A stretch of DNA of 64,000 nucleotides from an uncultured Planctomycetota bacterium (GCA_963752285.1 CAVVXN010000004.1:78918-142917), one strand, 5' to 3'. Counted from the stretch's first letter, positions 58,797 to 62,846 are shown. Program-made: numbers and translations. The notes: generated by a model from the letters alone, not told the origin.

Positions 58797-59408
58797 TCAG
58801 TCGGTGTGGCCCCCGATCCGCGCGCCCGCGGCGCCGGCGGCGGGGGCGCCGGGGCGCTCCGAGCGCGGGACGTAGGACCGAAGGTAGTCCGACTTGTCCT
58901 GGCCCTCGTAGAACGACCCGCCCACCGCGTAGTCCTGCGCCTCCTGGATCGCGCGCTCGGCGTCCCAGCCGTCGTACTCCATCCGGAAGAGCGCGCAGAG
59001 CAGCCCCGTCCGGCCCACGCCGTGCATGCAGTGCACGAGGACGGGGCGGTTCGCCGGGTCGTCCATGATCGCGAGGAAGCGGCCGATCGTCTCGTCGTCG
59101 GGCACCTGGCCCGACGGGAGCTCCACGTAGCGCGCGCCGTGACGTTCGGCGACCGCGCGGTCCGCCGGCACGTCCGTGTGCCGCATGTTCACGACGGTCT
59201 TGATGCCCTTCTCCGTCACCAGCTGATCGAGGCGGTCCTCCGGCAGGGTCGCCGACCGGTAGAGCACGCCCTCGCGTACGGTGCCGATGCGCCAGAGCAC
59301 GCGGTCGCGCGCGACGAACGCCACGGTGCCGAGCACGAGGAGGGGAAGGGCGACGGCGACGACGAGACGCAGGGGGGGGCGCCTCGCGCTGGGGGGCGGC
59401 GTGGACAT
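58797..59408 (-). CDS. membrane-anchored Cys-dependent (tyrosine/dual-specificity) phosphatase
   Basis: LYRSA, GIKTVVN, PVLVHCMHGVGRTG (CX5R). Confidence 0.9.
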   Translation of the reverse strand: MSTPPPSARRPPLRLVVAVALPLLVLGTVAFVARDRVLWRIGTVREGVLYRSATLPEDRLDQLVTEKGIKTVVNMRHTDVPADRAVAERHGARYVELPSGQVPDDETIGRFLAIMDDPANRPVLVHCMHGVGRTGLLCALFRMEYDGWDAERAIQEAQDYAVGGSFYEGQDKSDYLRSYVPRSERPGAPAAGAAGARIGGHTD

Positions 59409-59488: not shown

Positions 59489-62188
59489 TCAGCGTGCCGC
59501 CACCCCGGCGGTCGCGGGCGCGACCGGCTCGAATCGTCCCTGGAAGAACCGGAGCTTCTTCGGCTCGTACGTGAACCGGAGTCCCCGGATCTCGGCGCGG
59601 CGCTCGTACACGCGGATGATGCCCTCGGCGACCGCGCGCATGTGGTCGTTCGTGTAGACGCGACGCGGGATGGTCAGGCGCACGAGCTCGAGCTGCGGTC
59701 GGTAGTTCTCGCCCGTCGAGGGATCGCGGCCCTTCGACACGTTGCCCCGCTCCATCGCGCGCACGCCCGTCTCGACGTAGATCTCCGCCGCCAGCCGCTG
59801 CGCCGGGTACTCGTCCTGGTCCACGTGCGGCAGGAACCGGCGCGCGTCGAGGAAGATCGCGTGCGAGCCCGAGGGCCTGACGATCGGCACGCCGGCCTCC
59901 TCGAGGAGCTGGCCGAGGAACGCCGTCTGGCGGATCCGCGCGCGGATGTAGCGGTCGTCGAGCATCTCCCGCACGCCCTGGGCGATCGCCGCGAGGTCGG
60001 CCGCGGGCAGCCCGCCGTCGGTGACGTTTCCCTCGTACACGCGGAGCATCTCCTCGGCCTTCGCGGCGAGGGCCGCGTCGTCGCGGAAGGCGAGGATCCC
60101 GCCCATGTTGATGAGGAAGTCCTTCTTGCCCGAGACCGTGCATCCGTCGCCGTAGAGCATCATCTCGCCGAGGATGTCCTTCACCGGAACGTTCGCGTAC
60201 CGCGGGTCGTGGAGCTGGATCATGCACGCGTTCTCGGCGACGCGGGTCGAGTCGAAGTAGACCCGGATCCCGTGGCGCTGACAGAGCGCGTGGACCTCGC
60301 GCATGTTGTCCATGCTGACCGGCTGGCCGCCGGCCATGTTCACGGAGTGCTCGAAGGAGACGTACGCGACGTCGTCCGCGCCGTGTTCCGCGATCACCCT
60401 CTCGAGCTTCTCGAGGTCGATGTCGCCCTTCCACCGGTACGAGCTCTCCGGGTCGTGCGCCTGATCCACGATCACGTCGGCGAACACGCCGCCGGCGAGC
60501 TCCTGGTGGAGCTTCGTCGTCGTGAAGTACATGTTGCCGGGGACCACCTGGCCCGGCCGGATCGCGATCTGGCTCAGGATGTGCTCGGCCGCGCGCCCCT
60601 GGTGGGTGGGGAGGATGTGCTGGTAGCCGAACACGTCGCGGAGGACCTCGACCAGGTTCCAGTACTCCTCGGTGGCGGAGGAGGCCGGGCGCGCGCGTTC
60701 GTAGGCGGCCCACTGCTCGGTGCTCATCGCCGCGGTGCCCGAGTCGGTCAGGAGGTCGATCGTCACGTCCGCGCTGCGCAGCAGGAACGTGTTGTAGCCG
60801 GCCTTCTCGATCGCGCGGCGCCGCTCGTCGCGCGTGAGGTGGCCGACGTACTCGATGGTGTGGATCAGGAACGGCGAGCAGTCGAACGTCCACGTGTCGA
60901 GGTTCGGGATGATCCACCGGTATCGCATCTGGTCGCGCCAGCGGCACTCGCCGCCGGGCTCGAGCGGGGGGATCCGGTCGCGCTGGCGGTACAGGTCGAT
61001 GATCGCGTCGGCGACCTGGTCGAGCTGCGCGTTCGTCATCGCCAGTCGCGGGATCTGCACCGGGAGGATCGCGTCCCGGTCGAGCATGCCCTGCGCGACC
61101 GCGCGCACGCCCGACGTGAGGTAGAGCGCGCAGGAGATCGTGTCCTTCCGGTGCTTCTTCACGTGGGGGAGGAACTGGTCGGCGAGCAGGTACGCGCCGT
61201 CGCAGCCGCGGTCCAGGGGCACGCGGCCGGCGCGCAGGCGCTCCGTGAACCGCTCCGCCTGGTGCATGACCCAGTGCGCCTCGGCCTCGTTCGTCATCTC
61301 CCGGAGGCCGCGGGCGAGCACCTCCATGGTCCGGCCGGCCATCCCGCCGTACGTGTGCAGGCCCTCGTACACCACCACCTCGTTCATGAATCGCTCGAAC
61401 GTCGCCTCGTCGTTCGTGGCCAGGAGCGCGCCGACGTTGCTCCGCGCGCACTGCGCGCCGTCTACCTGGAGGACGTCCGCGAGCGAGGCCATCTCCTTCA
61501 CGATCTCGGCGACGGTCTGGCCCTGCTGGCCCGCCTCGTGACGTTGCACGTACCAGGCGTTCTCGACGATGCGCGAGCCGTCGAGGACGAGGGGGAGGCC
61601 GTAGCGCCGGGCGAGGGCGCGGGTGGCGCGCAGGTTCTCGATCGAGATCGGGTGGTGCGCATCCGCGAACGTCTCGACGTACACGAGCGCGTCCTTGCCG
61701 TCCTGGACCTCGTCTTCGAGGCGTAGGAGGTCGATGTTGCCCGTGAACACGGGCTCCCTGCGGTCGCGGATGTCGGGGACGCTCAGGCCCCGGGGCGTCA
61801 AGACGTCCCGGATCACGAGGGCGTTGCTGGGGAACGAGCTCCCCTCGGGCACCATGGTGGCGACCACCAGCTTGATGCAGCCGAGGAGGTTGTGGGTCGG
61901 ACAGACGTGCTGGTGGCCGAGCACGTCCGCGACCGCGCTCTCGAGCGCCTCGAAGTTGCGCGCGCCCGCGTACGCCTCGTCGCCGACGAGGAGCCCCGCG
62001 AGCTGCTCCTGGCTCACTGCGCTGCTGCCCCACGACACCATGTCGAAGGTCGTCTGGCGCGGCACCAGGTTCAGCACGTTGAACCGGGCGGCGATCAGGT
62101 TCTTCTTGCGCTGCTCGACGGACGGGAAGTCCGTGCGGAGGACGGTCTTGATCTTGTGGGGCTCGTGGACCGGCTTCGTGGGGGCCAT
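59489..62188 (-). CDS. tpl: tandem two-domain tyrosine phenol-lyase-like PLP enzyme
   Basis: C-half has DLLTDSG, THQGR, NMYFTTT, SGKKD, MERG, RLTIPRR, LRFF; N-half is a degenerate second copy. Confidence 0.9.
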   Translation of the reverse strand: MAPTKPVHEPHKIKTVLRTDFPSVEQRKKNLIAARFNVLNLVPRQTTFDMVSWGSSAVSQEQLAGLLVGDEAYAGARNFEALESAVADVLGHQHVCPTHNLLGCIKLVVATMVPEGSSFPSNALVIRDVLTPRGLSVPDIRDRREPVFTGNIDLLRLEDEVQDGKDALVYVETFADAHHPISIENLRATRALARRYGLPLVLDGSRIVENAWYVQRHEAGQQGQTVAEIVKEMASLADVLQVDGAQCARSNVGALLATNDEATFERFMNEVVVYEGLHTYGGMAGRTMEVLARGLREMTNEAEAHWVMHQAERFTERLRAGRVPLDRGCDGAYLLADQFLPHVKKHRKDTISCALYLTSGVRAVAQGMLDRDAILPVQIPRLAMTNAQLDQVADAIIDLYRQRDRIPPLEPGGECRWRDQMRYRWIIPNLDTWTFDCSPFLIHTIEYVGHLTRDERRRAIEKAGYNTFLLRSADVTIDLLTDSGTAAMSTEQWAAYERARPASSATEEYWNLVEVLRDVFGYQHILPTHQGRAAEHILSQIAIRPGQVVPGNMYFTTTKLHQELAGGVFADVIVDQAHDPESSYRWKGDIDLEKLERVIAEHGADDVAYVSFEHSVNMAGGQPVSMDNMREVHALCQRHGIRVYFDSTRVAENACMIQLHDPRYANVPVKDILGEMMLYGDGCTVSGKKDFLINMGGILAFRDDAALAAKAEEMLRVYEGNVTDGGLPAADLAAIAQGVREMLDDRYIRARIRQTAFLGQLLEEAGVPIVRPSGSHAIFLDARRFLPHVDQDEYPAQRLAAEIYVETGVRAMERGNVSKGRDPSTGENYRPQLELVRLTIPRRVYTNDHMRAVAEGIIRVYERRAEIRGLRFTYEPKKLRFFQGRFEPVAPATAGVAAR

Positions 62189-62297: not shown

Positions 62298-62846
62298 CTA
62301 CCGGTCCCCGCCCTCCTTCTGGAGCCGCTCGATCTGCTTCGCGAGGGCCGCGCCGTGGTGGATCACGTCCACCTGCTCGTCCACGTAACGCACGACGCCG
62401 TCGGGGTCCACGACGAACGTCACGCGCTTCGCGTATCGGCCTCCGGGGGCCAGCACGCCGTACTTCGTCGCGACGCTCCCGTCGGCGTCCGAGAGCACGG
62501 GATACGCCAGGTGCTGCTCGTCGGCGAACTTCTTCTGGGCGGCGACGTCGTCGAGGCTCACGGCCAGGACCGTCGCGTCGAGCTTGGTGAGATCGTCCGC
62601 TGCGTCCCGCAGCGCGCAGACCTCGCGCGTTCACCCCGGTGTCGAGGCCTTCGGGAAGAACGCGACGATCGTCCACTTCCCGTGCCCCGCCTCGGAGCGG
62701 CGGACGGCGTGGCCCGACGGGTCGTTGAGACGGAAGTCCGGCGCCTGCTGACCCACCTCCGGACCGGTCGCGGCGTCGTCCCCCGACGCGAGCGCGACCC
62801 CCGCGGCGACGACGGCCGCGGCGATGCCCAGTGCCCATCCTCTCAT
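62298..62846 (-). CDS. exported BCP/PrxQ-type peroxiredoxin with in-frame TGA (probable selenocysteine)
   Basis: FFPKASTPG-TGA-TREVC, in frame with the downstream VSLD..AKRVTFVVDPDG; GAGGAGG RBS. Confidence 0.85.
62598..62614 (-). promoter_or_regulatory. candidate bacterial SECIS hairpin
   Basis: CGCTGCG-GGA-CGCAGCG begins 17 nt after the UGA, with G in the apical loop. Confidence 0.55.

Follow-up and report, generated by a model that had tools for sequence, protein, structure and literature searches.

A fused double tyrosine phenol-lyase-like protein of an uncultured Planctomycetota bacterium with complementary loss of catalytic residues and one predicted composite active site

In textbooks, fold-type-I enzymes that depend on pyridoxal 5′-phosphate (PLP) are symmetric homodimers, and ordinary tyrosine phenol-lyase (TPL) and tryptophanase form a catalytic dimer of identical subunits with two active sites, each completed by residues of the partner. 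What becomes of the two sites when both partners are joined in one chain and no longer identical? In this study, the question was raised by a gene in a 64,000-nt stretch of DNA (the window; all coordinates are window positions) from an uncultured Planctomycetota bacterium (GCA_963752285.1 CAVVXN010000004.1:78918-142917). The gene encodes two TPL-like copies in a single frame, and sequence comparison and structural modelling make it probable that its product is a TPL-type PLP-dependent β-eliminating lyase built as a single-chain pseudo-heterodimer with one composite site. The gene and its parts are as follows.

59489..62188, minus strand: whole fused gene (P0001), with an ATG start, 899 codons and a stop at 59489-59491; PF01212 matches in two stretches
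60887..62188, minus strand: N-half, residues 1-434, a TPL-fold pseudoenzyme copy that has neither the PLP lysine nor the carboxylate arginine and keeps the putatively donated residues
60869..60976, minus strand: junction, residues 405-440, where the end of the N-half runs straight into the N-terminal strand of the C-half without a flexible linker; carries the conserved segment WRD..R.RW
59492..60886, minus strand: C-half, residues 435-899, the putative catalytic copy, in which all PLP and substrate residues that act within one subunit are kept

Translation of 59489-62188 on the minus strand revealed no internal stop, and the third-position GC content of the gene (0.97) is typical of real genes in this window, the GC content of which is 72.7%. 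The only Pfam family found in the protein was PF01212 (Beta_elim_lyase), matched in two stretches with 333.9 bits against a gathering threshold of 27, and a genome scan with the same model picks up each half separately (241 and 99.2 bits). The halves are homologous copies, sharing 27% identity over 434 columns (E 2e-41). Residues 9-407 of the N-half align end to end with residues 6-435 of the TPL 1c7g (E 3.1e-56), and HMMER aligned residues 435-887 of the C-half end to end with residues 3-454 of the same protein with one gap (E 2.7e-166); this latter alignment supplies the TPL numbering of the C-half (query = TPL + 432 up to 276 and TPL + 433 beyond). An initial annotation of this DNA had described a protein of 899 residues with two TPL copies joined near 60890. 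The joint was found between residues 434 and 435 (bases 60886/60887, minus strand), and every motif quoted in that annotation is present in the two halves at the translated coordinates.

In canonical TPL, we take Gly52, Asn262 and the partner's Glu69 to form the monovalent-cation site, Met288 to belong to the substrate pocket, and Gln98, Gly99, Arg100, Phe123, Asn185, Asp214, Arg217 and Ser254 to contact the cofactor. The counts in the list below and hereafter refer to 120 listed homologs of 782-920 residues that are 67-82% identical to the fused protein; they come from a search limited to proteins of 494-1574 residues, which gave 1457 matches at E ≤ 0.001 among 8000 scored candidates.

60521..60526, minus strand: C-half Phe555-Thr556 (TPL Phe123, Thr124), 120/120
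60119..60133, minus strand: C-half PLP-lysine motif SGKKD (Lys689 = TPL Lys257); S, K and K in 120/120
59744..59755, minus strand: C-half MERG (Met812 = TPL Met379, 117/120; Arg814 = TPL Arg381, 119/120)
59660..59683, minus strand: C-half VRLTIPRR (Arg837 = TPL Arg404), 119/120
59543..59554, minus strand: C-half LRFF (Phe881, Phe882 = TPL Phe448, Phe449), 119/120 each
60674..60694, minus strand: C-half ARPASSA, a degenerate loop replacing GDEAYAG (Pro501 at the position of Glu69, Ser503 at that of Tyr71); Glu/Tyr in 0/120
60011..60037, minus strand: C-half YEGNVTDGG, a degenerate loop (Asn721 at the position of Met288, N in 112/120; Asp724 at that of Tyr291, D in 118/120)
61964..61984, minus strand: N-half putative donated loop 1, GDEAYAG, residues 69-75 (Glu71 = TPL Glu69, Tyr73 = TPL Tyr71); G, D, E, Y and A in 120/120
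61331..61378, minus strand: N-half putative donated loop 2, VVVYEGLHTYGGMAGR, residues 271-286 (Leu277 = TPL Met288, Tyr280 = TPL Tyr291), both 120/120
61448..61462, minus strand: N-half dead cofactor motif DGAQC, replacing SGKKD (Gln246 at the position of the PLP lysine, Asp243 at that of Ser254); no Lys
61880..61897, minus strand: N-half degenerate phosphate loop THNLLG, replacing THQGRG; Asn100 and Leu102 in 120/120

In the alignment to 1c7g, the C-half ARPASSA falls on TPL 67-73 (GDEAYAG) and NVTD on TPL 288-291 (MPSY); the TDSG and THQGR motifs are also intact in this half. Further changes in the N-half are Asn/Leu at Gln98/Arg100, Asp at Asn185, Pro at Arg404 and Gln at Arg381, and the Leu that it carries at position 288 is also found in many canonical TPLs. 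The complementary loss put forward in the initial annotation is thus borne out: the C-half keeps the residues that act in cis and lacks Glu69, Tyr71, Met288 and Tyr291, and the N-half is its mirror image. In TPL, the general acid Tyr71, together with Glu69 and Tyr291, is present in every subunit; here the three are borne by the N-half only, and one of the two sites is therefore necessarily incomplete.

The same division was found throughout the homologs. Their frames are uninterrupted in all 120 cases; the few source labels available read 'tryptophanase' or 'tyrosine phenol-lyase' and come from metagenome-assembled genomes (MAGs) of Gemmatimonadota, Acidobacteriota and Planctomycetota. In the C-half, T49, D50, S51, G52, Q98, G99, R100, F123, T124, N185, D214, R217, S254, K256, K257 and N262 (TPL numbering) are present in 120/120 and M379, R381, R404, F448 and F449 in 117-119/120, so that the PLP lysine and cofactor residues that define TPL are found together in the C-half of every homolog, whereas the N-half has Gln246, Asn100, Leu102, Asp176 and Asp243 among these positions. 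Glu69, Tyr71 and Tyr291 occur in the C-half of none (0/120), the position of Tyr71 being nearly free (conservation 0.42). Conversely, the N-half has E69, Y71 and Y291 in 120/120 and Lys257 in 0/120 (Q 118, E 1, H 1). For its tyrosine, the conservation of which had been set beforehand as the refuting test, the outcome was Tyr73 in 120 of 120 homologs; the loop with Glu71 and Tyr73 is also invariant in a 48-sequence alignment that includes members only 36-52% identical. Both putatively donated loops are at least 98% conserved at 13 of 13 positions, a level reached by 122 of the 434 columns of the N-half overall. The N-half evolves faster than the C-half (lower identity in 118 of 119 comparisons; medians 0.614 and 0.749), and yet its median identity of 61% and invariant loops indicate that it is under clear purifying selection.

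According to an excerpt of PMC10170061, Lys257 of TPL binds PLP, Tyr71 is the general acid and Arg381 the base, and roles are also assigned to Thr124 and Phe448/449. Mapped onto the fused protein, this scheme would leave the two partners of a catalytic dimer fused head to tail with their labour divided. The C-half (435-899) would bind PLP at Lys689 and hold the substrate with Thr556, Arg814, Arg837 and Phe881/882. The N-half (1-434), with Gln246 at the lysine position, would not bind PLP covalently and would lend residues across the interface, namely Glu71 (monovalent-cation site), Tyr73 (general acid), Leu277 and Tyr280. Each 899-residue chain would thereby have one composite site and one PLP, the second site being dead, and the likeliest reaction would be the conversion of L-tyrosine to phenol, pyruvate and ammonium. 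On the combined evidence of residues and models, we regard an architecture with a single composite site as highly probable; that the site is active, that the halves pair within one chain and that one PLP is bound per chain are what we infer from it.

Do the halves pack in a way that would allow this? The AlphaFold2 single-chain model, made from the 48-sequence alignment, has a mean predicted local distance difference test score (pLDDT) of 91.3 and a predicted template modelling score (pTM) of 0.91, and its junction is ordered (pLDDT block means 91-96 for residues 411-440 and 87 for 441-450). Each half adopts the TPL fold, with Foldseek template modelling (TM) scores of 0.98 relative to the target (6dvx_B, 1c7g_A) and root-mean-square deviations of 1.3-1.7 Å, the C-half being 52-54% identical to TPL chains; relative to the fused model the TM score is 0.50, and the PDB matches listed are all chains of single-domain size. 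The ESM Atlas gave no model of the fused protein, the clusters shown being all of 457-470 residues. When the C-half with PLP and the N-half were modelled as a complex, the interface score ipSAE was 0.92 in three of three runs and 0.00 in the best of three controls; 58 of 80 solved complexes reach the mark used, as do 2 of 110 mismatched pairs. The runs share at least 92% of their contacts, with a partner pLDDT of at least 91. The interface sets N-half residues 70-77, 99-103, 272-277 and 282-287 against C-half residues 483-486, 529-533, 694-695 and 716-731, and Glu71 of the N-half touches Gly484, Thr485 and Asn694 of the C-half (TPL Gly52, Thr53 and Asn262) with an expected error of 1.0-1.1 Å. 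The models thus support a packing of the halves like that of the TPL catalytic dimer. They also agree with the single-chain pseudo-dimer with one composite site that the initial annotation had suggested, since N-half residues 70-77, including the conserved Tyr73, lie against cofactor-side residues of the C-half.

The same chemistry could also arise between chains, the N-half of one chain completing the C-half of another by domain swapping, in dimers or filaments. Because the halves were folded as separate chains, the complex model cannot tell intra-chain from inter-chain pairing, and we found nothing that specifically favours the swapped form. Against it, the confidently predicted whole chain (pTM 0.91) and the junction pLDDT of 87-96 show no disordered linker. 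The junction segment W417 R418 D419 is, moreover, conserved at 0.99-1.00, and residues 417 and 419 contact the C-half in the complex model, which fits a fixed intramolecular arrangement. We therefore consider domain swapping very unlikely.

A more trivial explanation would be that the gene is an artefact or is decaying, that is, a mis-assembled tandem duplicate or a pseudogene with one copy rotting. Some relatives on long contigs are indeed broken at arbitrary positions. However, the frame is open here and in each of the 120 homologs listed (782-920 residues), the N-half shows the signs of purifying selection described above, and the same architecture occurs in many phyla. The uninterrupted homologs and the reciprocal residue tallies in the two halves effectively refute this explanation. 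The fusion of two copies lies far beyond chance, and mis-assembly is ruled out by at least 120 other proteins that show the fusion in an unbroken frame.

To place the fusion among its relatives, one genome per species was scanned, which gave at least 80 loci, 43 of them with two TPL-like domains in tandem. Thirty of the 43 were read, and those left unread (L011-14, L017-22, L025, L028 and L031) all have a first domain of the N-half type and gaps of at most 13 nt. Single open frames were found in 19 of the 30; both halves could be read in 15 of these, and all 15 have the complementary split, E69 and Y71 being read in 14 of the 15 as the range of L051 starts inside the N-half. The loci with the split come from MAGs of Planctomycetota, Pseudomonadota, Bacteroidota, Nitrospirota, Chloroflexota and Myxococcota. 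An exhaustive search with the N-half added deeper double-length clusters that repeat the split (P0124, P0125, P0127, P0129, P0133, P0135 and P0139). Among relatives of the window genome, an N-half of this type (at least 57% identity) was found in 6 of 41 genomes, the window's own included, and the distribution among them is patchy and accessory.

The other 11 of the 30 tandem loci are ordinary adjacent genes without fusion. In the nine that were readable, a gene of the tryptophanase type (Asp124/Ile381/His448) stands beside a canonical TPL gene (Thr124/Arg381/Phe448), both intact. These pairs occur in either order (L038, L039, L040, L042, L043, L059, L080, L081 and L084; L047 and L075 were read in part) in MAGs labelled Bacteroidota, Symbiobacterium, Woeseiaceae, Steroidobacteraceae and Actinomycetota, among others, and L023 has a gene of the tryptophanase type immediately upstream of a fused one. 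A split two-gene form of the fused family was not found: 23 of the 120 listed N-half matches were examined for it, and none ends at the junction, all being contig-end fragments or broken at arbitrary positions. On long contigs, of 40 kb to 3 Mb, the fused-gene copies P0300, P0310, P0322, P0315, P0335, P0336 and P0330 are cut at arbitrary points; most of the cut copies run into unrelated tails or start mid-protein, and they would be frameshifts, assembly errors or decaying copies in some lineages.

How old is the fusion? A tree was built from 82 rows, comprising 27 fused proteins split into halves and 28 single-domain proteins (IQ-TREE in quick mode, unrooted). A branch with a Shimodaira-Hasegawa-like approximate likelihood ratio (SH-aLRT) support of 99 has all 27 N-halves on the same side. 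Twenty-three of the 27 C-halves form a clade (SH-aLRT 98) that groups with 19 single-domain TPLs (98), apart from nine tryptophanase-type rows (99); the position of this clade inside the TPL group is not settled by a quick unrooted tree. The N- and C-half subtrees mirror each other (P0127 with L035, L029 with L046, P0135 with L048, P0139 with L049, and P0129 with L041), and this congruence suggests that the halves have long co-evolved as one gene. The tree is consistent with a single old duplication and fusion, after which the halves evolved together.

Several observations weigh against the single-chain, one-site interpretation and should be set beside the evidence given above. The complementary split is not universal among double-length relatives, because a sister family (P0128, P0131, P0134 and P0136; 864-909 residues) keeps Lys257 and Arg404 in both halves, the N-half Lys of P0134 being uncertain. 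The C-halves of these proteins lack Tyr291 in four of four cases and Tyr71 in only two of four; the proteins have neither Arg381 nor Phe448 and belong to neither the TPL nor the tryptophanase clade of the tree. An earlier or a parallel stage may be preserved in them, or they may be two-site enzymes. The success of the complex model shows likeness to the TPL homodimer and may reflect the model's memory, since TPL homodimers have been solved; the alignment was, moreover, supplied by us and PLP rode along as a ligand, both departures from the calibration of the tool. The tree was made in quick mode, has long N-half branches and drew warnings of long-branch and composition effects. Finally, the C-half scores below the cut-off of the curated TPL family model; none of the ordinary TPLs examined is as diverged, and the substrate of the C-half may therefore differ.

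This last point bears on whether the enzyme is a TPL at all. The TPL equivalog model TIGR02618 has a cut-off of 720.7 bits, which neither half reaches by itself (C-half 631.2, N-half 231.3); the whole protein passes with 856.8 because the two half-scores add up. Ordinary single-domain proteins of the TPL clade pass in 16 of 16 cases (742-943 bits). The tryptophanase models TIGR02617 (cut-off 825.8) and NF053783 (750) are passed neither by the whole protein (611.4 and 665.3) nor by the C-half (433.7 and 452.3), and the best-scoring model for the C-half is that of TPL (631 vs 434 for tryptophanase). Part of the C-half deficit must come from its two replaced loops. The residues that set TPL apart are present in the C-half (Thr556 in 120/120, Arg814 and Phe881/882 in 119/120), where the adjacent tryptophanase-type genes have Asp/Ile/His. 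The initial annotation had called the protein a TPL rather than a tryptophanase: this holds in that Thr124, Arg381 and Phe448 are kept and the C-half groups with TPLs, and falls short in that the C-half misses the TPL cut-off. For this reason tyrosine is an inferred substrate, which the sequence moderately favours.

It is also conceivable that the composite site is active within the same architecture and has other chemistry or another substrate in vivo, such as β-elimination or replacement on a tyrosine analogue, a halotyrosine, 3,4-dihydroxyphenylalanine (DOPA) or some other amino acid. The low C-half score, set against the 16 of 16 passes of ordinary TPLs, points in this direction, as do the separate clade formed by the fused C-halves and the absence, in the loci compared, of a conserved gene neighbourhood linking the fused gene to tyrosine catabolism. 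However, Thr124, Arg381, Met379, Phe448 and Phe449 are kept in 117-120 of the 120 homologs, as in canonical TPLs position 288 is Leu or Met and position 291 is Tyr, both contributed by the N-half, and the TPL model still ranks first for a C-half whose deficit is due in part to the replaced loops. We give this possibility a minor, though appreciable, chance.

If the second site is dead, its pocket might have acquired a new job, binding an effector, or PLP non-covalently, and regulating the live site. Some pocket positions of the N-half are strongly conserved: Asn100, Leu102, Asp176 and Asp243 are fixed in 120/120, Gln246 is found in 118 and Pro376 in 116 of the 120, and 8 of 18 pocket positions are at least 98% conserved against a background of 28%. 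The equivalents of Asp214 and Arg217 are retained as well, and the analogous N-terminal fold of the glycine decarboxylase GLDC has been suggested to play a non-covalent PLP role (excerpt of PMC7259800). However, the substrate-side positions of the N-half are among its most variable (F123 0.70, T124 0.72, M379 0.42 and R381 0.38), and deeper lineages have decayed differently, K257 becoming Q, E or D and R404 becoming P, A, G or F. Some lineages have lost THQGRG and others have not, P0129 and L041 still carrying it together with Ser254, and the Asp at the Ser254 position and the Leu at the Arg100 position would be expected to disfavour phosphate. The freed second pocket of the initial annotation, allosteric or with altered specificity, finds no backing in substrate-contact positions as variable as these (0.38-0.72) and in a decay that depends on lineage, and both speak for relaxed constraint rather than for a conserved new ligand site. 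A regulatory pocket is accordingly given a small chance; a similarly doubtful extension would have it re-used as a ligand, effector or non-covalent PLP site in an allosteric asymmetric lyase with a shifted substrate range, the sister family being the intermediate.

The predicted one-site, single-chain arrangement can be compared with several known systems. Canonical TPL (EC 4.1.99.2; Citrobacter freundii, Erwinia herbicola; 2ez1, 1c7g, 6dvx), which cleaves L-tyrosine in a K+/NH4+-dependent reaction, has the fold common to both halves, and its catalytic dimer is held by the same loops as the modelled interface of the N- and C-halves, cation-site contacts included. Serine palmitoyltransferase LCB1/LCB2 is a fold-type-I pair in which a lysine-less partner is needed to complete the other's site; its partners are two gene products, eukaryotic α-oxoamine synthases, unlike the single-chain fused TPL. 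A wide structure search gave a fold-level match of the fused protein to chains of this enzyme. Canonical TPL is a homotetramer of subunits of ~456 residues (about 51 kDa) with four PLP (excerpt of PMC10170061), whereas the fused protein is one chain of 899 residues, the halves of which are not identical and carry the single PLP lysine and the general-acid Tyr separately. Tryptophanase (TnaA; EC 4.1.99.1) is the sister family of TPL and shares with it the fold and the logic of the catalytic dimer. In the Escherichia coli enzyme, Tyr74 and Tyr307 of one subunit are donated to hydrogen-bond the PLP phosphate of its neighbour (excerpt of PMC2770544); the fused protein has Thr/Arg/Phe at TPL 124/381/448, in contrast to the Asp/Ile/His of tryptophanase-type neighbours.

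In architecture, the glycine decarboxylase P-protein (GLDC/GcvP; PDB 4lhc) is the nearest precedent. As described in an excerpt of PMC7259800, it is a fold-type-I enzyme with homologous halves in one chain of more than 1000 residues, or in an α-β pair, and is called the unusual exception among fold-type-I enzymes; like the fused protein, it has the lysine in the C-half only and Gln at the lysine position of the N-half. It differs in belonging to another family and catalysing decarboxylation with lipoyl-H-protein, and the fused protein has no Pfam GDC-P match. The P-protein is also naturally split into α and β, whereas none of the 23 matches examined is a split form of the fused TPL. In the wide VIA-align search, no P-protein was among the 50 matches listed, the list being filled by single-domain matches to residues 450-867. 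The fused-TPL duplication is independent of that of the P-protein. No description of a fused or tandem TPL or tryptophanase was found in the full-text literature, a coverage that leaves out most subscription journals and supplements, and none of the curated families in Pfam and NCBIfam sets the fused form apart; the database labels 'tryptophanase' and 'tyrosine phenol-lyase' conceal the architecture.

If the proposed architecture is true, the fused TPL would be the second independent fold-type-I single-chain pseudo-dimer after the P-protein, with a clean signature of reciprocal loss. It would offer a natural test of the cross-interface residues in TPL and tryptophanase, of the sufficiency of one site per catalytic dimer and of the birth of a pseudoenzyme half, an intermediate stage of which the sister family may show. 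TPL serves industry as a catalyst in the production of L-DOPA and tyrosine analogues, and a covalently stabilised one-site dimer could be a useful scaffold.

The window genome also carries a single-domain paralog of the tryptophanase type (L002, G000 C5:246021-247145; GDESYAG, SAKKD, HFDTT and LRHF) and a threonine aldolase (L001, C5:706897-707748), so that the fused gene is an additional paralog. No RNA data set was listed as carrying the fused gene, and the DNA data sets listed share only a small part of its sequence words. Seven neighbouring genes in the window were compared with the at least 80 related loci, and none recurs beside the gene except in L009, the closest relative, which has a peroxiredoxin and a hypothetical gene, and in L032, which has one hypothetical gene. 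The genes on either side of the fused gene are listed below.

58797..59408, minus strand: dual-specificity/tyrosine-phosphatase-like protein of 203 residues with an HCxxGxxRT motif and an N-terminal hydrophobic segment
62298..62906, minus strand: AhpC/TSA peroxiredoxin with a signal-like N-terminus, just upstream of the fused gene

The phosphatase-like gene, which shares the strand of the fused gene, follows it after 80 nt and is not conserved beside it elsewhere. The peroxiredoxin frame contains a TGA at 62631-62633, exactly at the position of the peroxidatic cysteine (FFPKASTPG-U-TREVC), followed by a GC-rich hairpin, and the corresponding position of its L009 ortholog is also an in-frame stop. 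The genome encodes SelB and SelA, both above cut-offs, and one tRNA-Sec. The upstream gene thus probably encodes a selenocysteine peroxiredoxin.

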